Assembly (NCBI GenBank): GCA_022574775.1
Contig: JACZRI010000002.1
Span: 10,303-74,302, forward strand
Source of the DNA: Patescibacteria group bacterium
GTDB taxonomy: Bacteria; Patescibacteriota; Minisyncoccia; Minisyncoccales; RBG-13-36-15
DNA: 64,000 bases
Direction: 5' to 3'
A program made the translations under genes and the position numbers. The notes under the pieces were generated by a model that was not told the origin of the DNA, did no database searches, and saw only the letters and a program-made list of their open reading frames with translations. Each line of letters starts with the position of its first letter. Within the stretch, counting starts at the first letter, position 1. Shown one piece after another: positions 15 through 51,265 of this stretch.

Positions 15-311
15 TTAACCATGTTTAAGTATCGATTTAACTTTTACAAATCCTTTCTCCATTTCCGGCGTTTGCTCAATCATCCTTTTTCGTACTTCGT
101 GCTTCGTACTTCGTACTTCGTCTTCCCTTACCACATTCTCAATGAAAACTGAACGAAAGGTAGGCCTAACATCAGATATATTAACTTTTTTTAACTGGTC
201 AATATAATCAAAAATCGAGGACAACTCCTCTCTCATTTTTTCTATTTCTTTGGGAATCAGCCCCAACCTTGCTAACTTGGCAATATGTTGAACTTCTTGT
301 TTTGTAAGCAT
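15..311 (-). CDS. gatC: Glu/Asp-tRNA amidotransferase subunit C
   Basis: 98-aa ORF with a GatC-like N-terminus (LTKQEVQHIAKLARLGL...). The C-terminal EVRSTKHEVRKR is encoded by a CTTCGTA word-repeat arm (91-126). Confidence 0.85.
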   Translation of the reverse strand: MLTKQEVQHIAKLARLGLIPKEIEKMREELSSIFDYIDQLKKVNISDVRPTFRSVFIENVVREDEVRSTKHEVRKRMIEQTPEMEKGFVKVKSILKHG

Positions 312-1417: not shown

Positions 1418-1476
1418 AAAACAAAATATCTAATTTCTAATTACTAATTTCTAATTACTAAAATTTTACCATTTAG

Positions 1477-2721: not shown

Positions 2722-2805
2722 AACGGAATTACGAAGTCTGAAGTCTGAAGATTAGAAAATTTTATAAAATCGTTCTTCGTTTCTTCGTATTTCCTACTTC
2801 GTACT
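2722..2805. repeat. GAAGTCT / CTTCGTA word hairpin (proS-rseP spacer)
   Basis: ACGAAGTCTGAAGTCTGAAG ... CTTCGTTTCTTCGTATTTCCTACTTCGTACTTC. Confidence 0.85.
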
Positions 2806-6926: not shown

Positions 6927-6997
6927 TTTTGAAGTGCGAAGTAGGAAGTACGAAGAAATGAAGAAAAAGAAATCTTCAAATCTTCAGACTTCAAACT
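6927..6997. repeat. same word family in inverted orientation (mreB2-murA spacer)
   Basis: GAAGTGCGAAGTAGGAAGTACGAAG ... CTTCAAATCTTCAGACTTCAAACTTC. Confidence 0.85.
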
Positions 6998-11339: not shown

Positions 11340-11412
11340 TCAAACATCTAAACATCTTAACATTTAAACATTTTTATGTTCATATACTTAAATGTTTGTG
11401 TGCTAAAATGAT
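11340..11412. repeat. CATYTAAA / TTTAAATG-type word hairpin (rplM-rplQ spacer)
   Basis: CATCTAAACATCTTAACATTTAAACAT ... CTTAAATGTTTGTGTGCTAAAATG. Confidence 0.85.
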
Positions 11413-11763: not shown

Positions 11764-11840
11764 ATTATTATTTTAACATCTTAGCATTTAAATATTTTAA
11801 CACTCCGACTGATTCTTATGTTTATATGTTTAGATAAGTT

Positions 11841-13521: not shown

Positions 13522-13607
13522 TTATTGAAGTCTGAAGTATGAAGTCTGAAGATCTGAAGAATTTATAAAATTTCCTTCGTTTCTTCGCACTTTTTACTTC
13601 GTACTTT
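13522..13607. repeat. 86-nt word-hairpin spacer (GAAGTCT / CTTCGTA arms), copy 1 (rpsK-rpsD)
   Basis: Fills the spacer exactly from stop to GTG start. 85/86 identical to 14061-14146. Confidence 0.95.
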
Positions 13608-14060: not shown

Positions 14061-14146
14061 TTATTGAAGCCTGAAGTATGAAGTCTGAAGATCTGAAGAA
14101 TTTATAAAATTTCCTTCGTTTCTTCGCACTTTTTACTTCGTACTTT
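14061..14146. repeat. 86-nt word-hairpin spacer, copy 2 (rpsM-rpsK)
   Basis: 85/86 identical to 13522-13607, and the flanking stop (TAA) and start (GTG) codons also match. Confidence 0.95.
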
Positions 14147-14536: not shown

Positions 14537-14619
14537 TTTAAACTATAGTTAGTAGCTAGTATTTGGTAGCTTGAGAAATCTTAATCCCAAGATACAATCT
14601 ACAAAATACAAGCTGCAAG

Positions 14620-14733: not shown

Positions 14734-14815
14734 AAAACATATAAACATCTTAACATTTAAACACAAAATTCAACTCGGCTGTTTAGATGTTTAAATGCTT
14801 AAATATTAAAATAGG
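14734..14815. repeat. same family (rpmJ-infA spacer)
   Basis: AACATCTTAACATTTAAACAC ... GTTTAGATGTTTAAATGCTTAAATATT. Confidence 0.85.
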
Positions 14816-23146: not shown

Positions 23147-23917
23147 TCAAGAAACTGATTTAACGATCTTAATAAATTCTTTCGCTTTCAAAGACGCTCC
23201 TCCTATTAATAAGCCCTGGAAATCAGCTTCAAAAATGTAAGGTTTTGCATTTTGGCTGTTTACACTCCCTCCATAGAGAATTGAGAGATTTTCTGCGAAT
23301 TTTTGATTATAGATATTTGAAACAGTACTTCTGATGAAATCGCCCGCTCTCTTTGCTTCAGCTGGAGAACAAGCCTTTCCTGTGCCAATTGCCCAGATTG
23401 GTTCGTAAGCAATGACGAAGTCTGAAGTATGAAGTCTGAAGTCTGAAATTTTCTCCAGAGCGTTCGTAAGTTGTCTTTTTAATATTTCTTTTGTTTTACC
23501 CTTTTTTCTTTCTTGCTGGGTTTCGCCGATACATAAGATAGGATTTAGTTTTGTAGCGAGGGCTGTTTTTAATTTTTTATTTACCACTTCATCTGTTTCA
23601 TTAAAATACCTTCGCCGTTCAGAATGGCCAATGATAACATATTGACAGCCTAAATCTTTGAGCATCTTAGAAGAAATTTCTCCAGTAAAAGCTCCTTTTT
23701 TCTCCCAAAAAACATCTTGCGCCCCCAATTTAATGGAGGTCCGACCTCCATTATTTAATAAAGGTAAATATATAAACGGTGGGCAGATTACTACTTCAGT
23801 ATTCTTAATATCCTTCAATCCCTTACCCACAGAATCAAAAAGCCGCTTGGCTTCAGCCAATGATTGCGGGTTCATCTTCCAGTTTGCGACAACAATTGGT
23901 TTGTTCATAGATTGCAT
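23147..23917 (-). CDS. tpiA: triosephosphate isomerase
   Basis: VANWKMN, IGHSERR and AYEPIWAIGTG motifs. Alternative start at 23908. Carries an in-frame word-repeat insertion at 23414-23448. Confidence 0.93.
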   Translation of the reverse strand: MQSMNKPIVVANWKMNPQSLAEAKRLFDSVGKGLKDIKNTEVVICPPFIYLPLLNNGGRTSIKLGAQDVFWEKKGAFTGEISSKMLKDLGCQYVIIGHSERRRYFNETDEVVNKKLKTALATKLNPILCIGETQQERKKGKTKEILKRQLTNALEKISDFRLHTSDFVIAYEPIWAIGTGKACSPAEAKRAGDFIRSTVSNIYNQKFAENLSILYGGSVNSQNAKPYIFEADFQGLLIGGASLKAKEFIKIVKSVS

Positions 23918-25350: not shown

Positions 25351-25429
25351 AGTTAGCTTCTAGGTTTTAGGGGCTAGATGTTTAGCAAAATAACTAAAAA
25401 CCCAGACGCTAAACGCTAAAACCTATATT

Positions 25430-28942: not shown

Positions 28943-30229
28943 CTAAAAGGTTTCATATTCCCTCGTCTGCAATTGAGCTCTGATTTGGCGCATCAATTCT
29001 AAAACAACTGAAACCACAATTAGTAATGCTGTGCCACCCACTAAGAATTGGAAAACAACCACACCAGTTATACCTTGGACAATAGACGGCAAAACAGCAA
29101 TTGTTCCTAAAAACAAAGCTCCAATTAACAAAATTCGGTTGAGAACATAATACAAAAAGTTTGTGGTTGAAGATCCTGGTCTGATTCCGGGAATAAAACC
29201 TCCCATTTTTTGCAAATTGGAAGAAATAGCTTTTGGATCAAAAGTAACTGCAGTATAAAAATAGGTAAAAATACCGACTAACAGAAAATAGATAATCCCG
29301 TAGCCCCAAGGATTAATAGCAGGATTCAAGAAATTCCCTATAGACTGAATTACTCTTGGAATTACTCCTTCTCCTCCTGCAAAAAAGTTTGCAACCATTC
29401 CTGGAAAAAGCAACATAGATAAAGCGAAAATTATTGGAATAACACCTGCTGGATTGACATTTAAAGGCAAGTAAGTGGAAACGCCGCCGTACATCTTCAT
29501 ACCCCTCACCCTTTTAGCATAAGATACCGGAATATTTCTTCTCGCTTCCGATACTAAAACAACTCCGGCAATAATAATTACGGAACCTGCAAAAAAAAGT
29601 AAATAAGCCGGGAGTCTTGAAGGATCGTAGGTAACTACCAGTTGCCGGATATTAGTCGGAAAATCAGCAACAATTCCAGCAAAAATCATAAGAGAAATGC
29701 CATTACCAATCCCTTTTTCTGAAATTAATTCCCCTAACCACATCAAAAAAACAGCCCCGGCAGTGACGGTCAAAATAGAGGTCAGAAAGAAAACTTGGGG
29801 AAGATCCCCTATAATGCCTTGACGTTGGAGTAAAATAAGCAATCCATAGCTTTGCAGTATGGCCAAGGGAATAGTTAAAATTCTACCGTATTGATTAAAT
29901 TTCTGTCGCCCCGCCTCTCCCTCCTCTTTGTAAAGTCGTTCTAGTTGCGGGAAAATCATAGTAAGCAGCTGCAGAATAATTACCGAAGTAATGTAGGGAC
30001 CCAATCCAAGCATAACAATAGAAAGATTGTCCAAAGCTCCTCCGGTGAAAAGGTTCAATAGTCCAAAAAGTTGATTCGCTTCAAAAAATTCCTTCATTCT
30101 TTGTGAATCAATTCCAGGAATAGGAAGATTGGCCATTATTCTAAAAATGACAAAAATCCCTAAAATAAAAAATATTTTATTACGAAGATCTCTAATTTTG
30201 AATATTTGAATGATTCTTTGCCACCACAT
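28943..30229 (-). CDS. secY: preprotein translocase subunit SecY
   Basis: 428-aa polytopic ORF with a SecY pattern, in the canonical position after rplO. Confidence 0.95.
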   Translation of the reverse strand: MWWQRIIQIFKIRDLRNKIFFILGIFVIFRIMANLPIPGIDSQRMKEFFEANQLFGLLNLFTGGALDNLSIVMLGLGPYITSVIILQLLTMIFPQLERLYKEEGEAGRQKFNQYGRILTIPLAILQSYGLLILLQRQGIIGDLPQVFFLTSILTVTAGAVFLMWLGELISEKGIGNGISLMIFAGIVADFPTNIRQLVVTYDPSRLPAYLLFFAGSVIIIAGVVLVSEARRNIPVSYAKRVRGMKMYGGVSTYLPLNVNPAGVIPIIFALSMLLFPGMVANFFAGGEGVIPRVIQSIGNFLNPAINPWGYGIIYFLLVGIFTYFYTAVTFDPKAISSNLQKMGGFIPGIRPGSSTTNFLYYVLNRILLIGALFLGTIAVLPSIVQGITGVVVFQFLVGGTALLIVVSVVLELMRQIRAQLQTREYETF

Positions 30230-30295
30230 TGAAGTTTATATGCTATATATTGTATCTCGCATTTTGTATCAGTCCTACATACAAAATACCATATA

Positions 30296-30730
30296 TTAAA
30301 TACGAATGACACCGCCGGCTTTCTCAATCTTTTCTTTCGCTTTGCTAGAAACTAAACAATTCCTGACAGTCAAGGATTTCTCCAGCTTCCCTTTTCCTAA
30401 AATTTTGACTTGAGGCAATCTCCCTTTTATTTTACTAATTATTCTTTTCTCAATCAAGGTATAAGGAGTAATTGTATCTCCAGTCTTAAATTTCATCTCT
30501 AAAGCATCGAGGTTAATTATAGTTGGTTTTAATCTAAAACTCTTAAACCTATATCCTCTTAACTTTGGGTATCTTTTTATCAATTCTCGAATAACGGGCT
30601 GGAATTTCTTGCCAGCTCTTGATCTTTGACCCTTTACCCCTTTGCCAGAATAAGTACCGCGCTTTCCACCGCGACCTACCCTTTTCCTTTTCTTTTTTTT
30701 ATGAATTGGTTTTAATTGATGTAGCTGCAT
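30296..30730 (-). CDS. rplO: 50S ribosomal protein L15
   Basis: L15 pattern (L..L.P....K.RKRVGRG...G.T.GKG.KGQ..R.G). Start trimmed to ATG 30730 (MQLHQLKP). Confidence 0.93.
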   Translation of the reverse strand: MQLHQLKPIHKKKKRKRVGRGGKRGTYSGKGVKGQRSRAGKKFQPVIRELIKRYPKLRGYRFKSFRLKPTIINLDALEMKFKTGDTITPYTLIEKRIISKIKGRLPQVKILGKGKLEKSLTVRNCLVSSKAKEKIEKAGGVIRI

Positions 30731-30824
30731 ATCTTGGTATATTGCTGTGCCTCGCACCATCGAGTCAGACTCGACTGACGCCGGGGTATTTTGTATCTTG
30801 GTAATAAAAATCTCGAACTACTAA

Positions 30825-31301
30825 CTACAAATTGCTTTTAGTTTTCAGTTGCTTCAAAGCTTCAATTGTTGCTCTCGCATTATTCAATTTATTCCTTGTC
30901 CTTCCTAAGATTTTTGAAGAAATATTTTTGATTCCAGCTAAAGTACAAATTACCCTGACAGTTCCTCCTGCTACCAATCCTCTTCCTTTCCTTTGAGGCT
31001 TCAATAGAATTTTAGCTGATCCAAATTTCACATAAACTTCGTGAGGAATAGTATCATTTATAATAGGAACCGTAATCAAATTTTTCTTAGCTAACCTAAT
31101 AGCTTTTTCTATTGCTTGGGCAACATCTAAACCTTTATCTACCCCTACTCCTACTTTTCCTTTTTTGTCGCCAATAACCATCACTGCTCGAAACCGAAAA
31201 CGCCGGCCGCCAGCCGTCACACGAACAACTCTCGCCAAATCTAAAAGCTTTGACTCAAATTCATCTTTTTTCTGTTCTCTCGGTGGTCTTTCTCTTCGCA
31301 T
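30825..31301 (-). CDS. rpsE: 30S ribosomal protein S5
   Basis: 158-aa ORF with S5 pattern (V.RV.KV.KGGR.F.F.A.VV.GD..G.VG.G.GKA..V..AI.KA). Confidence 0.95.
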   Translation of the reverse strand: MRRERPPREQKKDEFESKLLDLARVVRVTAGGRRFRFRAVMVIGDKKGKVGVGVDKGLDVAQAIEKAIRLAKKNLITVPIINDTIPHEVYVKFGSAKILLKPQRKGRGLVAGGTVRVICTLAGIKNISSKILGRTRNKLNNARATIEALKQLKTKSNL

Positions 31302-31356
31302 AATTTTCTACTAATTGTTGTTTTTTTGAATTATGAATATTTGTAATTCGTAGGGT

Positions 31357-31740
31357 TTAAAATTTTAATCCAGTGCTTCTTGCTCCTTCGGCAAGAGCTC
31401 TCACTCTCCCATGGTATTTGTGACCTCCCCTATCAAACATAACTTTTTCAATTTTCTTTTTTAAAGCTTTCTCGGCCACTAATTTTCCTACTTCATAGGC
31501 TATAGCTCTTTTACCCGAAAGCGGTCTTTGATCTTTTTCCATTTTTCCTTTTTTATCTTTTATTTTTAAATCCTGGTCTCTTGCAGCAACAAGGGTTCTG
31601 CTTTTTTCATCATCGATTAACTGAGCATATATATGCTTTGCTGAACGAGAAACACAAAGCCGAGGAACTTCTGCTGTACCAAATATTTTTGCTCTTACTC
31701 GTTTATGACGTCTGTATCTTTTTTGTTTTTTTTCTAACAT
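31357..31740 (-). CDS. rplR: 50S ribosomal protein L18
   Basis: 127-aa ORF with L18 pattern (R..RHKRVR.KI.GT...PRL.V.RS.KHIYAQ.IDD). Confidence 0.95.
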
Positions 31741-31802
31741 ACATCAATTTCCAATGACTCACTGACTAAAATTTTAGAAATTACTAATTAGAAATAGAAA
31801 TT

Positions 31803-32345
31803 TTATTCAGCGGTTACCACCTTTTTTCCCGCTTTCTTCCTAACCACCTCTCCCATGTACCTTATTCCTTTCCCTTTATAAGGTTCAGGCTTGCGAACTT
31901 TTCTTATTCTCGCTGCAATCTGTCCAACTAATTCTTTATTAATACCTGAAATAATAATAACATTTTTTTCTACTAAAAACTGTATTCCCTCTGGCGCTTC
32001 TATTTTTACAGGATGAGTGAATCCGACCTGCAGAGTAAGTTCCTTTCCTTCAACTGAACCTTTATACCCTAAACCTTTAATCTCCAGTTTTTTTTCATAG
32101 CCATCGTTGACTCCTTTAATAAGGTTTGCGAGAATGGCCCTTGTTGTTCCCCATAATGCTTTAGTTTTTTTGATTTCAATTTGTGGTGAAACAAAAATTT
32201 TTTCATCCTTTAGTTCAGCTTTAACTTCAGGACAAATCTCATAAAAAAGCTCTCCTTTGGGCCCCTTTACTTTTACCTTGTTTCCGTCAATCTTAACCTC
32301 AACTCCTTGAGGTATCTCAATTGGTTTTTTACCTACGCGACTCAT
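31803..32345 (-). CDS. rplF: 50S ribosomal protein L6
   Basis: 180-aa ORF starting MSRVGKKPI.IP.GV.V. Confidence 0.95.
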   Translation of the reverse strand: MSRVGKKPIEIPQGVEVKIDGNKVKVKGPKGELFYEICPEVKAELKDEKIFVSPQIEIKKTKALWGTTRAILANLIKGVNDGYEKKLEIKGLGYKGSVEGKELTLQVGFTHPVKIEAPEGIQFLVEKNVIIISGINKELVGQIAARIRKVRKPEPYKGKGIRYMGEVVRKKAGKKVVTAE

Positions 32346-32412
32346 AAATCATTTAAGCATTTAAGCATTTTAACATTAAACATGTTTAGATGTTTGTATG
32401 TTTAGATGAAAT
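32346..32412. repeat. same family (rplF-rpsH spacer)
   Basis: CATTTAAGCATTTAAGCATTTTAACATTAAACATGTTTAGATGTTTGTATGTTTAGATG. Confidence 0.9.
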
Positions 32413-32802
32413 TTACCAGATTTCAGCGAGTACTTCTCCTCCAATTTTCCGTCTCCTGGCTTCTTTATTAGTCATTAATCCCTTTGGAGTAGAAATGATA
32501 GCTATTCCATAACCGCCCCTAACCCTTCTTAATTCCTTCGAGCCTTTATAAATTCTCTGGCCAGGTTTTGAAATTCTTTTTAGGCCAGATATAACAGGGG
32601 TTTTTCCGTCATATTTTAAAATAATTTCAATAGTTTTATTTATCTTTTTCCCTTTCTTTTCCACTTTCTCTACAAAACCATGCTTTTTTAGAACCTCGGC
32701 GATTTCATATTTCAGATTAGAAAAAGGGATATTAACCGTTTGATGTGAAACGGCTTGAGCATTACGGATTCGATTTAACATATCGGCAATAGGATCAGTC
32801 AT
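32413..32802 (-). CDS. rpsH: 30S ribosomal protein S8
   Basis: 129-aa ORF starting MTDPIADMLNRIRNA. Confidence 0.95.
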   Translation of the reverse strand: MTDPIADMLNRIRNAQAVSHQTVNIPFSNLKYEIAEVLKKHGFVEKVEKKGKKINKTIEIILKYDGKTPVISGLKRISKPGQRIYKGSKELRRVRGGYGIAIISTPKGLMTNKEARRRKIGGEVLAEIW

Positions 32803-32882
32803 TTGAAGTCTGAAGTCTGAAGTCTGAAGACCTGAAGATTTTTATTCTTTGTTTCTTCGTACTTCGTACTTCGTATTTAATT
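32803..32882. repeat. GAAGTCT / CTTCGTA word hairpin (rpsH-rpsN spacer)
   Basis: (GAAGTCT)x3 GAAGACCTGAAG ... (CTTCGTA)x3. Confidence 0.9.
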
Positions 32883-33068
32883 TTACCAGCTACTTTTCTT
32901 AATTCCTGGTATCTCAGCTTTATTTGCCATTTCTCTAAAACATATACGGCATAATCTAAATTTTCTCATGTATCCTCTTTTTCTTCCACATCTAAAGCAC
33001 CTACGGACAATCCGAGTTGAAAATTTTGGTTTTCCAAGCGACTTTAAAATTTGTGATTTCTTCGCCAT
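32883..33068 (-). CDS. rpsN: 30S ribosomal protein S14, Zn-ribbon (type Z)
   Basis: 61-aa ORF with [20 protein letters not shown]. Confidence 0.95.
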
Positions 33069-33072
33069 ATTT

Positions 33073-33627
33073 CTATGATTTTATAGGAAATCCTAACAAT
33101 TTTAACAATTCCATTCCTTCTTTTCTACTGTCTGTTTTAATAACCACAGTTATCTCTAGGCCGAAATTGAATCTTGTCACCTCAGGGGAAACCTCTGGAA
33201 AAACAATATGCTCTTTAATACCGATTGTTAAATTTCCTTCTTTATCAATTGAATTAGGGTTAATTCCTCGAAAATCCCTGGTTCTCGGCAAAACAATATT
33301 GATTAATCTTTCTAAAAAATCATACATAACTTTTTTTCTCAAAGTAACTTTAACTCCAACTGGCTGGCCTTCTCTAATTTTAAAACCGGCGATTGACTTT
33401 TTTGCTTTAGTTAAAACAGGCCTTTGTCCGCAAATCTGCGCCAAATCGGTTAAAATACTATCTGCAATTTTCTTCCGTTCATCCGAAGTTTTACCGGATA
33501 TAAACTTGCCAAAGCCAACATTAACTATCACTTTCCCAATTTTAGGAACAATCATATTGCTTTTATAACCAAACTTTTCCTTCATCGCAGGAATCACTTC
33601 TTTTCTATACTTTTCTAGTAATCGCAC
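33073..33627 (-). CDS. rplE: 50S ribosomal protein L5
   Basis: 184-aa ORF with an L5 pattern (P.I.KVV.N.G.G......D.......L..I.GQ.P..T.AKKSIA.FK.R.G). Confidence 0.95.
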
Positions 33628-33715
33628 TACAGTCTTGTAGTTTGTATTTCGTAGCTTATATTCTGGGTTTAACTCTATTCTCCCTAATACTAACTACTAG
33701 CTACTAACTACTATT

Positions 33716-34021
33716 TTATGTTTCTTGCCCGCATTTTTTACACACTCTGTACTTTTTATTCTCAGTCGTTTTATATCCCATTCTTGAGGGCTTGCCGCAC
33801 TTTGAACAAATGTATTTAACATTGGAGACATGAATCGGAGCTGCAAGCTCAATAATCTGACCTTTTTCTCCTCCTCGACGAGCTTTAATGTGTTTTTTCC
33901 TCAAATTCATTCCCTCAACCACGACACGCTCTTGCTTGGGAAAAGCTTTTAAAATCTTGCCACGTCTCCCTCGATCTTTTCCTGAAATTATTAGGACTGT
34001 ATCACCTTTATGCACTTTCAT
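33716..34021 (-). CDS. rplX: 50S ribosomal protein L24 with C-terminal Cys4 zinc-ribbon
   Basis: KOW N-terminus (MKVHKGDTVLIISGKDRGRRGKI). C-terminus CSKCGKP...RVCKKCGQ. Confidence 0.93.
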   Translation of the reverse strand: MKVHKGDTVLIISGKDRGRRGKILKAFPKQERVVVEGMNLRKKHIKARRGGEKGQIIELAAPIHVSNVKYICSKCGKPSRMGYKTTENKKYRVCKKCGQET

Positions 34022-34100
34022 TTTTAGTTTTTTCGCGTCTAGCGCCTAGTTTTTGATTATCATTTTTCTAAACACCTAGTCCTTAGAAGCTAGAAGCTAA

Positions 34101-34469
34101 TTACACAAGTTCCTCCGCTAATGCTGCTATTTTCTCAAATCCTTTCTCTTTTATTTCATAAGGCACTGGTCCAAAAATTCTTCCTCCTTTAGGATCTTTC
34201 TTCACATCCAAAATAACAACTGCGTTATCGTCAAAACGTATATAAGTGCCGTCCTTCCTCCGATAAGGCTTTTTCTGACGGACAATAACCGCCCTGACTA
34301 TGTCATGCGTTTTTACCGGCCTTCTTGGATCTGCTTTTTTGACTGCTGCCACAATCATATCTCCAATCTGCGCATACTTTTTTCGCGTTCCGCCCAAAAC
34401 CTTAAAACACTGGATAATTTTTGCCCCAGTGTTATCGGCTACTTTTAACATTGTTCTAGGCTGTATCAT
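34101..34469 (-). CDS. rplN: 50S ribosomal protein L14
   Basis: 122-aa ORF starting MIQPRTMLKVADNTGAK. Confidence 0.96.
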   Translation of the reverse strand: MIQPRTMLKVADNTGAKIIQCFKVLGGTRKKYAQIGDMIVAAVKKADPRRPVKTHDIVRAVIVRQKKPYRRKDGTYIRFDDNAVVILDVKKDPKGGRIFGPVPYEIKEKGFEKIAALAEELV

Positions 34470-34557
34470 AGACTAGCTTGTAGCTTATAGCTTGTAGCTT
34501 GTAGGTAATTAGATATCCAAACAATAATTTCAGTTAAAAACCTAAAAAGCTAATAAG
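34470..34557. repeat. TAGCTTG-word hairpin (rplN-rpsQ spacer)
   Basis: TAGCTTGTAGCTTATAGCTTGTAGCTTGTAGG ... CCTAAAAAGCTAATAAGCTA. Confidence 0.85.
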
Positions 34558-34806
34558 CTAAATCCTAGATATTACCCTCCACCTCTTATCCCTGCTTATT
34601 GGCCTGCATTCTTCAATAACAACCTTATCTCCCATTTTATATTCTTCTTTTTCATCATGTGCTTTATATTTCTTATGGACTTTATACCTTCTTTTATACC
34701 TCGGGTGTTGCCGGATGATTTCAATCTTAACAATTACTGTTTTTTGCATTTTGTCAGAAACAACAATTCCTGTTAATTTACGCTTTGGCATAATTAATTT
34801 AGACAT
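34558..34806 (-). CDS. rpsQ: 30S ribosomal protein S17
   Basis: 82-aa ORF with S17 pattern (L.G.VVSDKM.KT..V......HP.Y.K......K..AHD). Confidence 0.94.
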   Translation of the reverse strand: MSKLIMPKRKLTGIVVSDKMQKTVIVKIEIIRQHPRYKRRYKVHKKYKAHDEKEEYKMGDKVVIEECRPISRDKRWRVISRI

Positions 34807-34868
34807 TTAAGCATTTTTATATTTTAACAAAATTGATTTCTGTGCTTAAATGTTTAGATGTTTAAATG
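34807..34868. repeat. same family (rpsQ-rpmC spacer)
   Basis: CATTTAAGCATTTTTATATTTTAAC ... GCTTAAATGTTTAGATGTTTAAATG. Confidence 0.85.
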
Positions 34869-35051
34869 TTAAGATGATTTAAATACGGTAAGGATTCTTG
34901 CAATGTCCTTTCTTATTTTTCTTGCCTCTCTCACATTTTTTACTTTTCCTGCAGCCGAAGCAAATCTAAGCTGACGCAATTTTTCTCGACTTTCAGTTAA
35001 AGTCTTTTGTAATTCAACTTGAGATTTTTGTCGTAGCTCACTGGCTTTCAT
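34869..35051 (-). CDS. rpmC: 50S ribosomal protein L29
   Basis: 60-aa ORF MKASELRQKS..EL...L.E....L..LRF. Confidence 0.92.
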   Translation of the reverse strand: MKASELRQKSQVELQKTLTESREKLRQLRFASAAGKVKNVREARKIRKDIARILTVFKSS

Positions 35052-35125
35052 TATTAAACAGTTATATGGCTATATGATGAATGAAATAAAACGGCTACTA
35101 TTTAACCATTTAGCCATTGAAACAT

Positions 35126-35530
35126 TTATCGTTGCACAAATTTAGTTTTGATTGGCAATTTATCTCCTGCCCTCTTTAGAGCCTCCTTCGCTTGCTCCAT
35201 CTTTATTCCCTCCAACTCAAAGATTATTCTGCCTGGCCTTATAGGAAACACATAATGATCAACCGATCCCTTGCCTCCTCCCATAGGAACTTCTGTTCCT
35301 TTATGGGTAATTGGTTTTTGAGGAAAAATTCTAATCCAAAGTTTTCCTCCTTTTTTCAGATACCTGATAATCGCTCTTCTCCCTGCTTCAATCTGACGGG
35401 AAGTAATCCACTTTGACTCAAGACTCTTTAATCCAAAACTACCAAAAGTTAATTTTGTTCCCCGACGGTCAATACCCTTAGAACGACCCTTATGCCATTT
35501 TCTATGTTTTACTTTCTTTGGATAGAGCAT
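35126..35530 (-). CDS. rplP: 50S ribosomal protein L16
   Basis: 134-aa ORF starting [15 protein letters not shown]. Confidence 0.95.
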
Positions 35531-35602
35531 GACTCATTTAAACATCTAAGCATTTTAACCTTTTAACAAAATTGGAATCCACGATGTTCAGATGTTTACA
35601 CG
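35531..35602. repeat. same family (rplP-rpsC spacer)
   Basis: CATTTAAACATCTAAGCATTTTAACC ... GATGTTCAGATGTTTACACG. Confidence 0.85.
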
Positions 35603-36283
35603 TTAAGAAGAGAACTTCTCTCCTTTATAAATCCATACTTTCACACCTACCACTCCATAACTACAATAGGCTTCCGAACTCGCGTAGTCAATATCTGCCC
35701 TTATGGTCTGACGCGGCAACCTCCCTTTTTTTAACCACGCCTTTCTTGCATACTCTGCTCCCCCCAACCTTCCTGCGATTTCTACCCTTGCGCCCTGAAC
35801 TTGTTTTGAATACATTATCCTTCCCAAAGCCTGTTTTAATACTCTTCTGTAAGGAAACCTTCTTTCTATTTGCTGTGCCATCCACTGACTAACCAATTGC
35901 GCATGTACCCAAGGATCTTTGATCTCCTTGATTTCCAACCTCATCTCTGGCGGCTTATCATTTTTTCTTCTCTTCCTGTCCACTAAAATCTTCTTAGGAC
36001 GAAGCTCCTTCTCTAAATTTCTCTTTAATTCCTCAATTCCTGATCCGCCGCGACCAATAATTAAACCAGGCCTTGCAGAAGTCATAATAATCGTTAATTT
36101 CCCAGGAGAACGTTCAATTTCGATCTTCTCTAAACTCATTTGTTTTAATCTCTCTTTTAGAAATTCTCTAATTCTAAAATCCTCCTCTAAAAATTGAGAG
36201 AAATCTTTTTTGCTTAACCAGCGAGAATTCCAATCAGCTGTTTCTTTTGTTCTAAAAATTTTAGGATGAACTCTATGACTCAT
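35603..36283 (-). CDS. rpsC: 30S ribosomal protein S3
   Basis: 226-aa ORF with KH domain and S3-C pattern (IIGRGGSGIEELK...GRLGGAEYAR). Confidence 0.95.
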   Translation of the reverse strand: MSHRVHPKIFRTKETADWNSRWLSKKDFSQFLEEDFRIREFLKERLKQMSLEKIEIERSPGKLTIIMTSARPGLIIGRGGSGIEELKRNLEKELRPKKILVDRKRRKNDKPPEMRLEIKEIKDPWVHAQLVSQWMAQQIERRFPYRRVLKQALGRIMYSKQVQGARVEIAGRLGGAEYARKAWLKKGRLPRQTIRADIDYASSEAYCSYGVVGVKVWIYKGEKFSS

Positions 36284-36366
36284 GTTGAATTACAAAATAT
36301 GAAGCATGAAGATCAAAGGATTTTTAAATATCTTTCTCTTTTTTTCGTACTTCGTACTTCAGACTA
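36284..36366. repeat. GAAG-word hairpin (rpsC-rplV spacer)
   Basis: ATGAAGCATGAAGATC ... TTCGTACTTCGTACTTCAGAC. Confidence 0.8.
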
Positions 36367-36885
36367 CTAAAATGCTTTTCGTTTAAAAAATCTTTTTGTT
36401 CCTTTTTCTACTTTCGGCTTAAGAAAACGAATTTCCGGTCTTAATTTAGGCTTTTCCGCCCGGCGCTCTTCGCCTTTTTGGAGTCCAACTTCCTTCTTTT
36501 GAATTTTCTCCTCCTTTGCTTTCTTTAACTTCTTAACTATTTTTTGCTTTGTTGCAATCTCATCCAATACTAAAATGATATGAGAGGTCTTTTTCTGAAT
36601 CTCTGAAACCTGACCTCGTGCTCTTGGCATCCATCTTTTTAATTTTGGCCCTTCATCAACTGTTATTTTTGAAATATAAAGATTGCCTTCTTCTATCTGG
36701 GAACTCTGTTTAATATTAGCTATAGCCTGCTTTAAAAGCTTAAGCACTGGAAGAGCTGCTTTCTTGGTAGTAAAATTTAAAAGAGCTTGGGCTTCCCTAA
36801 TAGATTTCCCTCTAATTAAGTCAGATATTAATCTCACTTTCCGAGGGGCAATTCGTAGATATCGAAGTTTAGCAGTTGAAGACAT
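36367..36885 (-). CDS. rplV: 50S ribosomal protein L22 with Lys/Glu-rich C-terminal extension
   Basis: L22 core (A.LRYLRIAPRKVRL..DLIRGK....A...L.F) followed by a charged tail of about 60 aa. Confidence 0.93.
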   Translation of the reverse strand: MSSTAKLRYLRIAPRKVRLISDLIRGKSIREAQALLNFTTKKAALPVLKLLKQAIANIKQSSQIEEGNLYISKITVDEGPKLKRWMPRARGQVSEIQKKTSHIILVLDEIATKQKIVKKLKKAKEEKIQKKEVGLQKGEERRAEKPKLRPEIRFLKPKVEKGTKRFFKRKAF

Positions 36886-36929
36886 AAAATAAATTTACTA
36901 CACGGCTCATTGTTAAACCATTAAGCCGT

Positions 36930-37256
36930 TTAAGTGCCTTCGGCACTTTTTAGTTTTTCTGCTTCGGATTCTTTAGTTTTTTCCTCTAACTCTCTTTGTA
37001 TTTTCCCGCCGTGCCTAAAAAACTTTGTGGTCGGAGAAAATTCTCCTAATTTGTGACCGACCATCTCTTCTGTCGCATTAACCGGGACATGTTCTTTACC
37101 ATTGTGAACTCCAAACGTAAATCCAACCATTTCCGGAGTAATAGTACAAGCTCTGCACCAAGTTTTAATAATCTCATTTGTGCCAGGTTTAAGTTTTTTG
37201 ACTTTCTTTAATAATTTTGGGTCCACGTAAGGACCTTTTTTTAAGCTACGAGCCAT
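36930..37256 (-). CDS. rpsS: 30S ribosomal protein S19
   Basis: [17 protein letters not shown]...HNGK.HVPV......MVGHKLGEF. Confidence 0.95.
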
Positions 37257-37314
37257 GATTTAGTGTTTAGTAGTTAGTATTTTTGGGTTTTTCTCCCAAG
37301 CTACAAGCTACAAA

Positions 37315-38109
37315 TTATTTCTTGTGTCTTCTTTTTATTATATATCTATCTGTCCATCTCCGCCTTCTTGTCCTCACACCCAGTGCTGGTTTTCCCCAAG
37401 GCGTCTTTGGATGTTTTAAACCAATAGGTGCCTTCCCCTCTCCTCCACCATGTGGATGGTCAGCAGGAACCATTGCTGATCCTCGAACAGTCGGTCTTAT
37501 TCCCCTCAATCTTGATCTCCCTGCTTTAGGAATTTTCTCATAAATTTTCTCAGGATTGGAAACCATTCCAACTGAAGCGAAGCATTCTCGGAAAACTTTT
37601 CTTATTTCCCTAGAAGGCATTTCTAAATGGGTAAACTTATCTTCTTGAGCTAAAATTCGAGCCCCAGTTCCCGCACCTCTTGCTAATTTTCCTCCTCTAC
37701 CTGGCTCAATTTCAATATTATAGACCATAGTTCCCAAAGGAATATTTTTTAACTTCATCCGATTTCCGGCAGATATTGGGGCTTTCTCTGAAATCTGAAT
37801 TTCATCGCCAACTTTTAGGTTTTGTGGAGCTAAAGTATATCTTTTTTCCTTATCTTCATATTCTAAAAGCGCCAAAAAACCAGACCTGTAAGGATCATAT
37901 TCAAGAGCAATTACCTTAGCTTTTATCCCAATTTTTTTCTGGCCAAAATCAACAATCCGGTATAACCTCTTTACTCCCCCCCCTTGGTGACGAACAGTGA
38001 TCCTACCGCTAGACCCTCTCCCCGCTTTACTCTTTAAATATATGAGCAACCTTTTTTCAGGCTCTTTTTTGGTCAATATTCTTGTTGATGATGTTCTTTT
38101 AGATTTCAT
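37315..38109 (-). CDS. rplB: 50S ribosomal protein L2
   Basis: 264-aa ORF with L2 pattern (GRN..G.IT.RH.GGG.KR.YR.IDF...; HPHGGGEGK). Confidence 0.96.
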   Translation of the reverse strand: MKSKRTSSTRILTKKEPEKRLLIYLKSKAGRGSSGRITVRHQGGGVKRLYRIVDFGQKKIGIKAKVIALEYDPYRSGFLALLEYEDKEKRYTLAPQNLKVGDEIQISEKAPISAGNRMKLKNIPLGTMVYNIEIEPGRGGKLARGAGTGARILAQEDKFTHLEMPSREIRKVFRECFASVGMVSNPEKIYEKIPKAGRSRLRGIRPTVRGSAMVPADHPHGGGEGKAPIGLKHPKTPWGKPALGVRTRRRRWTDRYIIKRRHKK

Positions 38110-38128
38110 ACAAATCTCAAGGTAATTC

Positions 38129-38563
38129 TTACTGGGGCAGTATCTCTATTTTCTGTCCTTTTTTTATTTTCACTATTGCTTTTTTATATCCTTTCCTCCA
38201 ACCAGTTATTTTTCCTAATCTTCTTTTTTTGGAAGATATATTTATAATATTAACATTTAACACATTCACCCCATAAACATCCTCAATTGCTTTTTTAATA
38301 TCAATCTTATTAGCTGTAGTATAAACTTTAAAAGCGTATTGATTTTTCTTGGTCAAATCAGTAGTTTTCTCTGTAATATGTGGAGATTTTAATATCCTGT
38401 ATGCCTCGCCTACAACTACCTTCTTCTTGGAGACCGCTTTTATTTCTCCCTTAACCTCTTTTGGCTCCTCAGCAGGCTTAACTTTTTCTACAACAGATTT
38501 AACTTTCTCTGTTGGTTTCTCTTTTGGTTTTCTTTTGAATATATCGCGTAGAGCCATATACAA
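38129..38563 (-). CDS. rplW: 50S ribosomal protein L23 with charged N-terminal extension
   Basis: L23 core (ILK.PHITEK...L....N.Y.FKV...ANK..IK.AIE..Y.V.V..VN) preceded by about 45 aa rich in Lys/Glu/Pro/Val. Confidence 0.92.
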   Translation of the reverse strand: MYMALRDIFKRKPKEKPTEKVKSVVEKVKPAEEPKEVKGEIKAVSKKKVVVGEAYRILKSPHITEKTTDLTKKNQYAFKVYTTANKIDIKKAIEDVYGVNVLNVNIINISSKKRRLGKITGWRKGYKKAIVKIKKGQKIEILPQ

Positions 38564-38639
38564 TAAATTTCTAATAGTTAACTTCTAATGTCTAATTATT
38601 TTAGATATTTGATATTGGGATTTAATTAGTTATTAGTAA
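38564..38639. repeat. CTAATTT / ATTAGTA-word hairpin (rplW-rplD spacer)
   Basis: TTCTAATAGTTAACTTCTAATGTCTAATTA ... TTAATTAGTTATTAGTAATT. Relatives at 1418-1476, 31741-31802 and 49221-49318. Confidence 0.8.
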
Positions 38640-39281
38640 TTAAGAATTAGCATTTTTTAGGAATGTTTCTTTTATAACTTTAATTGACTCTTTTGGCAAA
38701 AGTAAATATTTAAAAGATAGCAAATCCAGAGTATTTAAATCTCTCGCCTGAATAATTTCTACTTTCGGAATATTTTTTGCAGCCCTGATGATTGATTCTT
38801 CTTTTTTGGGAAGAGCGATCAAGCAAGATATATTTTTTATTGGTAATTTATTCAAAATTCCAGTCATCAATTTTGTCTTAGGTTTATCAATTTTCAAAGA
38901 ATCTAAGATAATTATTAAATTTTCTTTGGCCTTGGCGCTTATTGCCATAAATAACGCTTTTTTTCTCATTTTTTTCGGAATTTTCTTTTTGTAAGCTCTC
39001 GTCTTTCTTGGACCAAAAGTAACTCCACCTCCTCTCCAAATTGGGGATCTTATGGAACCAGCCCTTGCTCTTCCCGTCCCTTTCTGTCTCCAAGGTTTTT
39101 TTCCACCACCTCGGACTTCAGCTCTCGTTTTGGTATGGGCAATAGGAATTCTCCTATTTGCCATCTGGCTCACAACCACCTGATGAATTAAATCAGTATT
39201 AACTGGAATTCCGAAAATCTCTTTTGGTAATACTACATCTTTAGCCTTTTTTCCTTGTTGATTATAAACTGGGTATTTCAT
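38640..39281 (-). CDS. rplD: 50S ribosomal protein L4
   Basis: 213-aa ORF with L4 pattern (TKTRAEVRGGGKKPWRQKGTGRAR.GS.RSP.W.GGG..FGP). Confidence 0.95.
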   Translation of the reverse strand: MKYPVYNQQGKKAKDVVLPKEIFGIPVNTDLIHQVVVSQMANRRIPIAHTKTRAEVRGGGKKPWRQKGTGRARAGSIRSPIWRGGGVTFGPRKTRAYKKKIPKKMRKKALFMAISAKAKENLIIILDSLKIDKPKTKLMTGILNKLPIKNISCLIALPKKEESIIRAAKNIPKVEIIQARDLNTLDLLSFKYLLLPKESIKVIKETFLKNANS

Positions 39282-39487
39282 GTTTTGTAGAAGCGGGTTT
39301 ACGCGGATCTAAAGGAAGTCAGACTCCCCTCTAAAGACTTTCTTGAAGCAAGGGTAAGCTCCTCAAAGAGCATCTCGGAGCCCCAGACAGCATGGTCCCG
39401 CCCAGGGCGGGTGTCGGGGTGAGAGTTGAACAGCAATTTCTCGCTGGGAAATTGACTGTGTCTCTTTGATGGGGCTTACCCGAGCGC
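39282..39487. repeat. GC-rich structured element filling the rplC-rplD spacer
   Basis: 206-nt spacer with hairpins CCCGCC/GGCGGG, GCTCC/GGAGC and CAATTTC-TCGCTGG-GAAATTG. The last is homologous to 45317-45341. Confidence 0.8.
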
Positions 39488-40126
39488 TTATCCTCTAATC
39501 TCAAGAAGTGTACCTCTCCTGCCAGGAATAGCACCTTTCATTGCAATCAAATTGTTTTTAGCATCAATTTTAACTATTTCCAAATTTTTAACTGTTATTC
39601 TTTCAAACCCCATTCTCCCCGGCATTTTTTTTCCTTTAATCACTCTTTCTGGAAAAGAGGATCCAACAGAACCGAGAGTTCTCGCTTCATGTTTTACTCC
39701 ATGAGAAGCTCCTCTTCCCGCGAATCCCCATCTTTTCACAGCTCCTTGAAAACCTTTTCCTTTTGAAATCCCAGACACCTTAACCATATCCCCAGCTTGA
39801 AATATAGAAATATCTATTTTATCGCCAACTTTATATTTGCTATTTTGCCCGTCTGCAGCAGATCCCTGCTCGTCGGCAAGCAAGACGCCTTTGGCAGAAA
39901 ATTCTCTTAAATACCTGAAAGGTTTTTGCGTCTGTGGTTTCTTAATTTTTTTTTTCTTCTCTATTCTTTCAAAACCGATCTGAGTAGCTTCGTAACCATC
40001 TTTCTTTTTGTTTTTTATTTGCGTAACAAAACAGGGACCAGCTTCAATCACTGTCACTGGAACAACATTGCCTCTTTCATCAAATAGTTGGGACATTTCT
40101 AATTTTTTACCTAAGATAAATTTCAT
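39488..40126 (-). CDS. rplC: 50S ribosomal protein L3
   Basis: 212-aa ORF with L3 pattern (GKK..M.Q.F...G..VPVTVIEAGPC.V.Q.K...; KGKGFQG..KR). Confidence 0.95.
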   Translation of the reverse strand: MKFILGKKLEMSQLFDERGNVVPVTVIEAGPCFVTQIKNKKKDGYEATQIGFERIEKKKKIKKPQTQKPFRYLREFSAKGVLLADEQGSAADGQNSKYKVGDKIDISIFQAGDMVKVSGISKGKGFQGAVKRWGFAGRGASHGVKHEARTLGSVGSSFPERVIKGKKMPGRMGFERITVKNLEIVKIDAKNNLIAMKGAIPGRRGTLLEIRG

Positions 40127-40179
40127 ATTTTGTAAAAATGTGTGAATACGGATAACTACGCGGATTTATACGGACAATA

Positions 40180-40205
40180 GAAAACCGGGCAATAACCCGG
40201 TTTTC
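40180..40205 (-). terminator. strong hairpin (attenuator/terminator-like) between rpsJ and rplC
   Basis: GAAAACCGGG / CCCGGTTTTC 10-bp stem, with minus-strand tail UUUUCUAUU. Confidence 0.5.
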
Positions 40206-40373
40206 CACCATGGTTATTTAATATGAAAATTAGATTTTAAAATTCGTTGATTTTGAACACATTAATTATGTATCAAAAATTTATTTTTGTAAACTCTTTT
40301 CTGCATCTTTCCGTGTTTGGATAAGCGTGATGCAAAGTTATGCTTAACTTGATGAAACGATCCGCTTCTATGG

Positions 40374-40718
40374 TCACATTTTTATTTCGATATCAACTCC
40401 AGCAGGTAAATTCAAATTCATTAAAGCATCAATTACTTTTGGGTTAGGGTTTAAAATATCAATCAACCTTTTGTGAATCCTCATTTCAAACTGCTCTCTC
40501 GCATCTTTATGCACAAAAGAAGATCTATTAACCGTATATTTGTGAATTTCGGTTGGTAATGGAACAGGGCCAGACACTTCTGCCCCATGCCTTAAAGCTA
40601 CCTCAACAATCTGTCGAGCGCTGCTGTCAATGACCTTATGGTCATAAGCCTTAATCTTTATCCGAACCTTCGGTTTAACTTCTTCCTCAACTCCTTTTGT
40701 TTTTTCTTTAGCTGCCAT
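40374..40718 (-). CDS. rpsJ: 30S ribosomal protein S10
   Basis: 114-aa ORF with S10 pattern (IRIK.KAYDH..ID.S...IV......GA.V.GP.PLPT). Confidence 0.95.
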
Positions 40719-40791
40719 TTCTTAAAAAGAACAAAAATTTTAAGTTTCTAATCTTTAGTGTTCGGGGGTTACATATTTAATATTAAACTTC

Positions 40792-40822
40792 AAAAAAAAC
40801 TAGCGCCAAAGCCGGACGCTAG
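40792..40822 (-). terminator. terminator-like hairpin after tuf
   Basis: CTAGCG / CGCTAG stem followed on the minus strand by a T8 run. Confidence 0.65.
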
Positions 40823-40829
40823 TATTCTA

Positions 40830-42271: not shown

Positions 42272-42341
42272 CATTCCTTTTGTATCAAACCTTTTGTATC
42301 AAAAATATCGAATGAAGTCAAAGAATTTGTAGTGGATTATT

Positions 42342-44666: not shown

Positions 44667-44712
44667 GATTTTTGTATCTTGTATTTTGTATTTCTTTAAT
44701 GAGCTTTTGCTC

Positions 44713-46010: not shown

Positions 46011-46079
46011 AAAATTAGCTTTTGGGACTAGCTTCTAGGTTTTTAATTAGCGGTATTCTTAACTAGACGCTACTAGAAA
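46011..46079. repeat. CTAGC / GCTAG-word hairpin (rpsG-rpsL spacer)
   Basis: GGGACTAGCTTCTAGG ... CTAGACGCTACTAGAAAC. Relatives at 25351-25429, 34022-34100 and 51091-51185. Confidence 0.8.
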
Positions 46080-49220: not shown

Positions 49221-49318
49221 TTAGAAAATTTCTAATATCTAATTTCTAATGTCTAATAAAATCCCAATGCCTAAATGTCTAAAATTTTCGTCATTAGAAA
49301 TTAGTAATTAATAATTGG

Positions 49319-51090: not shown

Positions 51091-51265
51091 GATAAAATTA
51101 AGTTTTTAGGTTCTAGGGTTTAGGGTCTAGTTCGAATAATTTTATCTAAGAAGCTAGCCACTAAAAACCTAGACGCTAGTTGGTGATCGACCTTTTTCTC
51201 TTCCTTCGTGGATTTACTTATCCACAAGCTTATTTTACTTTAATTTAAGCAAGAAGTATAGTCAA

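Follow-up and report, generated by a model that had tools for sequence, protein, structure and literature searches.

The 64,000-nt stretch of Patescibacteria DNA analysed here, referred to as the window, is part of the metagenome scaffold ENA ERZ23499143, scaffold_12 (80.8 kb), and our subject is the hairpin-forming repeats, built from tandem 7-8-nt words, that lie between the genes of its ribosomal-protein operons. The window has a GC content of 37%, and its minus strand carries nearly all genes. Its S3 protein is only ~60% identical to those of the nearest reference genomes, which are Patescibacteria metagenome-assembled genomes. A Bacteroidetes origin, at which the GC content and spacers free of Shine-Dalgarno motifs might hint, was rejected on the strength of these relatives and of the source record. 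The region 28943-46490 contains rpsL-rpsG-fusA-tuf-rpsJ-rplC...rplO-secY; the S10/spc gene order is the universal one, and rpmD is missing. The alpha operon is located at 10289-15040 and consists of infA, rpsM, rpsK, rpsD, rpoA and rplQ, followed by rplM and rpsI.

When we measured the stop-to-start spacers from secY to rpsJ, the first ten were 66, 64, 55, 62, 67, 80, 4, 88, 79 and 88 nt, and the last ten were 62, 74, 72, 83, 44, 58, 19, 76, 206 and 247 nt. An earlier note on this DNA had described these spacers as unusually long. Nineteen of its 20 lengths were reproduced, the second being 64 nt and not 94 nt, and the description holds, as the median of the block is 74 nt, compared with mostly 11-33 nt in loci outside the Candidate Phyla Radiation (CPR) that were obtained with the same rpsC query. 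In compact Patescibacteria loci, the medians were 1-10 nt.

The non-coding DNA of the window is strongly periodic. Hexamers recur there 9.15 times per kb at lag 7 and 5.15 times per kb at lag 8, compared with 0.2-1.05 per kb at the remaining lags within 3-12 and ~1 per kb in coding DNA, indicating that the enrichment at lags 7 and 8 is ~10-fold and is confined to non-coding DNA. Tandem Repeats Finder located arrays of period 7 or 8 where the earlier note had placed its 7-8-nt tandem words, which are thus far above chance. The arms are tandem arrays of two to five such words, and most arrays face a near-complementary array 15-45 nt away. A typical well-formed element spans 66 nt, with ~21 pairs and a folding energy of ~-18 kcal/mol, and its AT-rich stem consists of 3-6-bp helix segments between symmetric 1x1 or 2x2 loops.

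The mean inverted-repeat score of 34 spacers with lengths of 44-100 nt was 19.9, compared with 14.0 for dinucleotide shuffles (Mann-Whitney p = 1.4e-10) and 12.7 for length-matched coding segments (p = 2e-14). A mismatch penalty of -3 detects too few of the stems with periodic mismatches, and a milder penalty was used for these scores. The 95th percentile of the shuffles was exceeded by 53% of the spacers. The view that most spacers are inverted repeats therefore stands for the spacers as a class, although about half of them are weak when taken singly. The spacer 30761-30824 yielded no word hairpin, and the elements at 34470, 34807, 37257, 31741 and 1418 combine one good arm with a decayed or out-of-period partner.

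An all-against-all comparison of the spacers revealed homology that spans whole elements, loops included, and there are five main families (F1 to F5) with 4-8 copies each in 64 kb. The family assignments of the earlier note and all the copies that it had listed outside the ribosomal block were borne out by BLAST and alignment; two F1 copies (13522-13607 and 14061-14146) and single arms within genes (89-125 and 23417-23447) had been overlooked. The elements and arrays are as follows.

Family F1, words GAAGTAC / CTTCAGA, period 7:
2722..2805, minus strand: junction of an M50 peptidase gene and a class II aminoacyl-tRNA synthetase gene
6927..6997, plus strand (flipped): junction of an EPSP-synthase-family gene and mreB
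13522..13607, minus strand: rpsK-rpsD junction
14061..14146, minus strand: rpsM-rpsK junction
32803..32882, minus strand: rpsN-rpsH junction
36284..36366, minus strand: decayed copy at the rplV-rpsC junction; the L083 orthologue is better formed
89..125, minus strand: single arm, GAAGTAC x5, in frame within gatC, encoding EDEVRSTKHEVRK
23417..23447, minus strand: single arm, CTTCAGA x4.4, in frame within tpiA, encoding ISDFRLHTSDF just before the VIAYEP motif
Family F2, words CATYTAAA / ATGYTTAR, period 8:
11340..11412, plus strand (flipped): rplQ-rplM junction
11764..11840, minus strand: rpoA-rplQ junction
14734..14815, minus strand: first part of the infA-rpsM spacer
32346..32412, minus strand: rpsH-rplF junction
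34807..34884, minus strand: rpmC-rpsQ junction, the array entering the last codons and the stop codon of rpmC
35531..35602, minus strand: rpsC-rplP junction, which holds another family in L083
Family F3, words TAGCTTG / CTACAAG:
14537..14619, plus strand (flipped): last part of the infA-rpsM spacer
33628..33715, minus strand: rplX-rplE junction
34470..34557, minus strand: weak hairpin at rpsQ-rplN, with a regular 3' arm (CTACAAG x4.4) and a 5' arm drifted to period 8
37257..37314, minus strand: rplB-rpsS junction
Family F4, words CTAATTT / AAATTAG:
1418..1476, minus strand: aminoacyl-tRNA synthetase / mreB junction
31741..31802, minus strand: weak hairpin at the rplF-rplR junction
38564..38650, minus strand: rplD-rplW junction, the array overlapping the end of rplD
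49221..49318, minus strand: strongest inverted repeat of the window
Family F5, words TAGCGTC / CTAGAAG:
25351..25429, minus strand: downstream of galT
34022..34100, minus strand: rplN-rplX junction
46011..46079, minus strand: rpsL-rpsG junction
51091..51185, minus strand: immediately upstream of the 51-codon open reading frame (ORF) 50935-51090
Other elements and arrays:
30230..30295, minus strand: GTATTTT / ATACAAA hairpin at the rplO-secY junction
44670..44693, minus strand: single ATACAAA array that stops 3 nt short of the fusA start codon
31302..31356, minus strand: remnant of an ACGAATT-word element in the rplR-rpsE spacer, well formed in L089 and L086
35052..35125, minus strand: GGCTAAA...TAGCC hairpin in the rplP-rpmC spacer
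36886..36929, minus strand: short 8-bp hairpin in the rpsS-rplV spacer, not word-built
12801-12984, 23918-24076, 42030-42560 and 46491-46597: ACGCGATACC...ATTCGTAGATTAGGATTAT type

The last of these, a family that can also be written ACGCGATACCAATCTAC...ATTCGTAGATTAGGATTAT, often ends just before a start codon. The ORF at 50935-51090 (minus strand) is uncalled, and its product has two CxxC pairs and is zinc-ribbon-like.

Every main family has members in both orientations relative to transcription, in agreement with the variable orientation reported earlier. Seven F1 copies align over ~85 nt with a mean column identity of 78%, and the two copies on either side of rpsK, each followed by a GTG start codon, are identical at 85 of 86 positions (98.8%), which points to a very recent duplication or gene conversion. 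The arms are internally uniform and differ from their partners at fixed positions. In F1, which forms a ladder of four 5-bp helices with 2x2 loops between them, AC on one arm is opposite AG on the other (GAAGTAC against GAAGTCT, the reverse complement of the right-arm word). We suggest that slippage during replication lengthened the arms by units of 7-8 nt, each with 3-6 paired and 1-2 unpaired bases, and such slippage would explain both why the same mismatch stands in every word of an arm and why the two arms can drift in period independently. Local low-complexity drift would go further, with each spacer growing its own words by slippage, perhaps under weak mismatch repair, and the hairpins being accidental. 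The strong 7/8-nt periodicity restricted to non-coding DNA and the different periods of the two arms at 34470 agree with such drift, as does the fact that seven is the favoured unit length of long bacterial simple-sequence repeats, heptamers being the commonest of them (PMC4679880). However, it does not account for the homology of whole elements, loops included, between distant junctions and genomes, for the 98.8% identical pair, for inverted-repeat scores far above those of dinucleotide-preserving shuffles, or for the same families across saturated divergence. The family homology largely refutes local drift, and we consider it highly improbable.

The elements are placed tightly between genes. 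Relative to the stop codon, the 5' arrays start at -8 to +9 nt, and 1-11 nt separate the end of the 3' arrays from the start codon, so that an element is approximately the whole spacer, from the stop codon, sometimes included, to within 1-11 nt of the start. Arrays extend into the last codons of rpmC and rplD, and F1 words also enter coding sequence in the essential genes gatC and tpiA. In tpiA, the array presumably replaces a variable loop, with almost no change in length relative to what we take to be the E. coli TPI sequence.

We then compared the window with loci of relatives that were retrieved through their S3 homologues; the percentages that follow the locus names are S3 identities to the window. 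The closest locus, L083 (88%), is identical to the window at 79% of four-fold sites and has hairpin spacers at all four junctions covered. At two of these, rpsC-rplP and rpmC-rpsQ, its elements belong to other families than those of the window, and the divergence covers the last 30-70 nt of the upstream gene, so that the protein C-termini differ. At rplV-rpsC both loci carry the same F1 element (65 of 76 positions identical), and at rplP-rpmC the elements are homologous except for a 30-nt TTCGAA palindrome in the hairpin loop of L083, where one element is thus nested within the loop of another. The elements at these two unswapped junctions diverge at a roughly neutral rate. The window also contains, at 4862-4893, a near-perfect palindrome of 30 nt with TTCGAA at its centre (AAGAGTRCAGGGTTCGAATCCTGTACTCTT), which resembles a tRNA T-arm; the L083 copy lies at ~1398-1428.

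More distant relatives form a mosaic. L084 (73%) has spacers of 1-12 nt throughout, and in L085-L089 (65-68%) compact and filled junctions are mixed, the empty ones measuring 1-10 nt (for example TAA TATTT ATG). The filler of rplV-rpsC varies by genome, being F1, F2, F5 or an AGTAGTA/CTACAAA family. Four-fold sites are saturated between the window and L085 (35% identical), whereas F2 elements at matching junctions share 73-81% identity, and L085 contains nine F2 matches. F5, the ATTCGTAG family and the ATTCGTAGATTAGGATTAT family are also present in L083, L085, L086, L027 and L035, the last two having S3 proteins only 42-44% identical to that of the window. Single copies seem to turn over fast while family sequences last, because elements were swapped in L083 and F2, F5 and the ATTCGTAG family are shared across saturated divergence. 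As read from these loci, copies are shown to be duplicated, swapped and lost faster than silent sites change, with a family consensus that persists across deeply diverged Patescibacteria. The earlier note had said that missing conservation of hairpin potential in related genomes would count against its observation, and this is what we found in part: hairpins are missing from some relatives, and in others a different element occupies the site.

In many Patescibacteria loci (L001, L027, L035, L037, L041, L050, L004, L006, L011, L014 and L015), ribosomal-operon spacers are filled by hairpins that consist of other words, with periods of 7-9 nt. Word-built hairpins were found neither in the other Patescibacteria loci nor in any non-CPR locus examined. 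The L027 family, with 9-nt words, has seven copies, for which the conserved loop core served as the search key; their first word often contains the stop codon, and their last one extends into the ATG.

Based on these observations, we suggest that the hairpins are very probably families of dispersed palindromic repeats that copy and replace one another. We also lean, with slightly better than even confidence, towards the more specific reading that they are 55-100-nt miniature palindromic dispersed repeats in the stop-to-start junctions of co-transcribed genes, which behave like repetitive extragenic palindromic (REP) elements and REPINs or like transposable elements of the miniature inverted-repeat type (MITEs). 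A REP-like spread was one of three candidates in the earlier note, beside RNA punctuation of the RNase III type and initiation insulators for cistrons without Shine-Dalgarno motifs, and it gains support from the whole-element families, the presence of both orientations, the near-identical pair, the swap between close relatives, the mosaic of filled and empty junctions and the lack of a wobble signature described below. The elements would spread by copying or replacement at the DNA level, which would extend into the upstream gene's 3' end, and the agent could be a trans-acting transposase encoded outside the 79 kb examined, or gene conversion or recombination between copies and strains. Since the swaps include gene ends, recombination or gene conversion fits at least as well as transposition. 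Their tolerance in essential operons might be due to a host that does not use Shine-Dalgarno (SD) motifs. Folding of the palindrome in the mRNA would keep the upstream stop codon beside the downstream start codon, so that translational coupling survives and termination-coupled initiation can go on in an SD-independent system. Tolerance through geometry is the reading we prefer.

Several observations weigh against this interpretation. First, neither Y1_Tnp nor RAYT nor another transposase was found in the 64-kb window and 15 kb of flanks by Pfam scans of the non-ribosomal window genes and precomputed Pfam matches for the called flank genes; the sole recombinase in these results was an Xer-type tyrosine recombinase. 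Nor did the 79 kb examined yield a related autonomous insertion sequence (IS) whose ends match those of the elements. Second, the flanks of 30 copies show no consistent target-site duplication, and some copies have TAA/TAG on either side, which is no more than suggestive. Third, junctions that offer targets of 5-10 nt and are mostly filled in ribosomal operons would need strong targeting or selection. Fourth, a purely selfish element should avoid ribosomal operons, yet by an objective periodicity criterion the elements are enriched there (16 of 31 junctions compared with 6 of 44, p = 6e-4), and the additional 15 kb of flanking DNA from this genome has none. Fifth, relatives that are otherwise compact still have a filled rpsQ-rplN junction, which is occupied in each of the five genomes covering it, and in these relatives rpmC-rpsQ and rplV-rpsC are nearly always filled too. 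Sixth, the seven copies of the L027 family all point the same way, and their right arm extends into the ATG. Finally, the maintenance of family sequences across saturated divergence could mean that a conserved host factor reads the words. Carriage by phages was considered and rejected, as exact-word scans of viral contigs gave four stray single arrays and zero hairpin elements. With regard to recombinases, L096 contains at 13667-14885, ~2.3-3.5 kb beyond window position 1, two genes that by eye appear to encode tRNAs and then, on the opposite strand, a gene for a tyrosine recombinase, and this region may be the edge of an integrated element.

To describe pairing at the RNA level, spacers were folded with G-U pairs disallowed and the bases facing each other in symmetric loops were counted. 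The window gave 464 Watson-Crick, 8 G-U, 18 A-C and 58 other oppositions, and 95 hairpin spacers from 15 other Patescibacteria loci gave 2298, 45, 73 and 186, respectively. An RNA-level wobble signature was thus rejected, the G-U/A-C comparison showing a preference on neither the mRNA strand nor its complement. The arms had been said to pair with a regular mismatch or G-U pattern; the regular mismatch is confirmed in the symmetric loops, while G-U is not. The better-folding strand follows the orientation of the copy. The F2 element at 32346 folds with -23.8 kcal/mol on the plus strand and -7.0 kcal/mol on the mRNA strand, and the relation is reversed for the flipped F2 element at 11340. Compensatory changes were not found among the F1 copies, which are very similar, and older copies gather broken pairs. 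Such a pattern is what one would expect of a DNA palindrome copied from a master and not of a selected RNA helix, with room still left for an RNA function.

We next consider translation. A 4-mer SD-like motif precedes only 6 of 76 genes in the window, in accordance with the earlier premise of SD-less cistrons, and the region from -10 to -1 is A/T-rich and G-poor. The SD-like fraction is 0-29% in compact and hairpin-rich Patescibacteria loci alike, compared with 40-89% in most non-CPR loci. Since hairpin-free compact relatives are equally SD-less, the hairpins are not necessary for SD-less initiation, and SD loss was ruled out as their cause because the compact loci are equally SD-poor. The ribosomal-operon enrichment in the window becomes 21 of 31 compared with 6 of 44 junctions when elements are counted by family assignment (p = 2e-6), and it is a weak and non-significant trend in ten other loci pooled (38% compared with 26%, p = 0.12).

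These results bear on the possibility that the elements are selected intercistronic RNA modules, in which the hairpin hides an SD-less start codon until the ribosome ending the upstream cistron melts the 5' arm, giving 1:1 translational coupling. Such modules might in addition block 3'-5' exonucleases or offer an RNase III site, and their families might be interchangeable since only the fold matters. The placement of the arrays at stop and start codons, the genes without SD motifs, the enrichment in the ribosomal-protein operons of this genome with nothing in its 15-kb flanks, the junctions filled in every relative examined albeit by different families, and the persistence of a hairpin after a family swap are all in line with this possibility, as are moderate stabilities with symmetric internal loops that a ribosome would easily unwind and the lack of terminator or promoter consensus in the word spacers. 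On the contrary, hairpins are absent from L084, L088 and much of L087, which lack SD motifs to the same degree, about half of the spacers have no individually significant hairpin, the orthologous copy at 36284 has decayed without compensation, and the mRNA strand shows no G-U preference, some elements folding much better antisense. In addition, the stop/start geometry is trivial if the element is the whole spacer, and the enrichment is not significant in the other loci pooled. We regard selected modules of this kind as possible but rather doubtful, while an RNA-level role in coupling, stabilisation or processing is plausible, as the ribosomal-operon enrichment hints. A further reading, which we think unlikely, is a lineage-specific solution for SD-less operons in part of the Candidate Phyla Radiation, in which domesticated mobile palindromes serve as translational couplers or segment stabilisers; as couplers, they would juxtapose stop and start, mask the start and let ribosomes re-initiate across a 60-90-nt insert.

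The words themselves, and not the hairpin, could be functional if the arrays before start codons bound an oligomerising single-strand nucleic-acid-binding protein, such as a cold-shock-domain protein (~7 nt per monomer) or S1. Arrays that end 1-11 nt before start codons, partnerless single arrays such as the one before fusA (44670-44693) and words conserved over saturated divergence could be understood in this way, and a flipped copy would show a similar core word, the arms being near-complementary. The TAACTGA heptamer arrays of Beggiatoaceae, for which CspB heptamer binding has been raised, likewise end 1 nt before starts (PMC4679880). However, one genome contains at least five unrelated words, relatives have different words at the same junction, both orientations are present, equally regular arrays adjoin stop codons, and no candidate protein can be named, so that we hold a word-binding function to be quite improbable.

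Stem-loops directly 3' of stop codons might also suggest intrinsic terminators or attenuators of an unusual type without a U-tract. The word elements have no T-run, as had been noted, and their stems are AT-rich and interrupted, in place of an uninterrupted GC-rich stem with a U-tract; the terminator scan was empty in the word spacers, and termination of the intrinsic type was rejected. Ordinary GC-rich hairpins with T-runs occur in the same genome at operon ends (40823-40799) and in the spacers 10147-10288, 21404-21499 and 27228-27316, and seventeen terminators inside one ribosomal operon would block expression. A terminator or attenuator role is thus scarcely credible to us. Neither promoter nor terminator consensus was found in the word spacers between rplC and secY, which are presumably transcribed within one ~11-kb rplC-secY unit.

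Three further spacer features do not belong to the word elements.

39340-39487 (in 39282..39487), minus strand: GC-rich structured unit of ~150 nt in the rplC-rplD spacer, of a different class from the word elements
45215-45369: second copy of the GC-rich structured unit, in the rpsG-fusA gap
40127..40373, minus strand: promoter-like site and GC hairpin with a T-run in the rpsJ-rplC spacer, not a word element

The GC-rich unit contains the motifs GCTCGG, CCCAGCGAG, GACCATGC and CCTCGCTTAA and shows compensatory changes in 11 of 19 predicted pairs. It occurs at several ribosomal-operon junctions in four genomes (in the relatives, L085 6844-7099 and 14656-14774; L086 6799-7020; L089 1944-2166, 6765-6939 and 13980-14151) and matches nothing in Rfam; candidate identities are a new structured RNA, a ribosomal-protein leader and a mobile element with a structure. 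In the rpsJ-rplC spacer, the promoter-like site TTTACA-17-CATAAT at 40293-40265 is followed by the T-run GC hairpin AACCGGGTTATTGCCCGGTTTTC, which is kept in L085, L086 and L088 and less exactly in L089. This spacer gave a weak, sub-threshold Rfam match to Leu_leader (E = 0.0066), and the hairpin looks like an attenuator or leader before rplC rather than rpsJ. At gathering score, Rfam returned only tRNA and an AdoCbl-II riboswitch in the window, and a permissive scan of 39200-45600 returned nothing relevant.

Other features were noted in the window. Within the str operon, the 876-nt gap between the genes rpsG and fusA contains an opposite-strand ORF of 111 codons (44783-45118, plus strand), which adjoins the GC-rich unit and is preceded by a perfect TTGACA-17-TATAAT promoter match at 44713-44741. 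The AdoCbl-II riboswitch (58392-58452, minus strand) lies ahead of an operon for DUF4430, DUF6580, B12-dependent ribonucleotide reductase and corrinoid adenosyltransferase. The ORF 21500-22360 (286 codons) contains at 21510-22185 a 99-nt tandem repeat with 6.8 copies and 90% identity, and it has no Pfam domain above threshold.

Patescibacteria genomes are usually seen as streamlined and repeat-poor, yet in the lineage studied here repeats are tolerated at most junctions of the operon that is most essential and most expressed, with longer intergenic regions and reshaped protein C-termini as consequences. Hairpin-rich lineages and their compact sisters provide a natural comparison of filled and empty junctions, both for the spread of palindromes without an obvious transposase and for the translation and stabilisation of SD-less polycistronic mRNAs. 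The presence, family and copy number of elements per junction differ, as between the window and L083, and could serve as lineage markers. The elements can also break assemblies, one L027 copy running into a stretch of N. If it is true that the hairpins act as couplers, they would amount to a way of organising operons that is new.

In the literature searched, we found no description of such elements in Patescibacteria, and we therefore compared them with known systems. Three array-like or hairpin-like systems were rejected. The R''/R' core sites of integron attC (RYYYAAC...GTTRRRY) are absent except for one chance ATTCAAC, and no integrase adjoins the block; CRISPR-like arrays were rejected on architecture. 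TIGR-Tas arrays, which are found in CPR, have tandem units with box C/D motifs, two variable spacers and an adjoining Tas (Nop-domain) gene (PMC12045711), whereas the window elements are isolated, one per junction, with identical words and no Tas-like gene.

Like the RAYT-mobilised REP/REPIN elements of Pseudomonas and Enterobacteria (PMC3116915, PMC3337134), the window elements are short extragenic imperfect palindromes that form long hairpins, and they are multi-copy (five families), non-autonomous and located between co-transcribed genes. REPIN populations are likewise described as persisting in the long term while single copies come and go (PMC3116915; RAREFAN preprint). However, a REPIN consists of two inverted REP units of ~20-40 nt, often with a GTAG head, while the arms in the window are arrays of 7-8-nt words, and GTAG is present in F3 and the ATTCGTAG family and absent from F1, F2 and F4. 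Unlike REP elements, the window elements fill the stop-start junction exactly, intrude into gene ends and nearly saturate ribosomal-operon junctions; no RAYT was seen in 79 kb, and the host is a small-genome Patescibacteria lineage.

Correia/NEMIS elements of Neisseria, ERIC, RUP and BOX are miniature and co-transcribed and affect mRNA processing, Correia hairpins being cut by RNase III (PMC10969869). The window elements resemble MITEs in their miniature size, inverted-repeat ends, co-transcription with flanking genes and insertion polymorphism between relatives; they differ in being smaller and word-built, and terminal inverted repeats plus a target-site duplication could not be defined in the copies compared, nor was a related full-length IS seen in the 79 kb. 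The review of these elements mentions neither Patescibacteria nor tandem-repeat arms (PMC10969869). In sponge mitochondria, a compact genome has had its intergenic regions invaded by hairpin-forming repeats, in what appear to be several waves (PMC2800124). The host here is bacterial and not organellar, and word-built arms are not evident in the part of that source consulted.

The TAACTGA arrays of marine Beggiatoaceae are direct, only one of 170 sets being inverted in the Beggiatoa genome (PMC4679880). They share with the window elements tandem 7-nt units, an almost exclusively intergenic location, ends often a few nt from a start codon and occurrence in distant lineages without an evident vehicle. 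Unlike them, the window arrays face a near-complementary partner and so form a hairpin, and there are several unrelated words per genome. The STRR heptamers (short tandemly repeated repetitive sequences) of heterocystous cyanobacteria are further intergenic direct repeats of this unit length. Rickettsia palindromic elements (RPE) are small palindromes of a reduced genome as well, and they are 100-150 bp long, are not word-built and can lie in frame within protein-coding genes. In the window, by contrast, the in-gene cases are single arms or C-terminal tails, not whole elements. RPE are mentioned in PMC1779305 and PMC10969869.

Taken together, the elements cannot be assigned to the REP/MITE group or to the heptamer-array group, because their arms are not REPIN units, neither a RAYT or IS partner nor target-site duplications could be established from the 79 kb, and the described heptamer arrays are direct, not paired. 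The closest systems by behaviour are REP/REPIN-RAYT and MITEs such as Correia, and the closest by word structure are the heptamer arrays of Beggiatoaceae and cyanobacteria.

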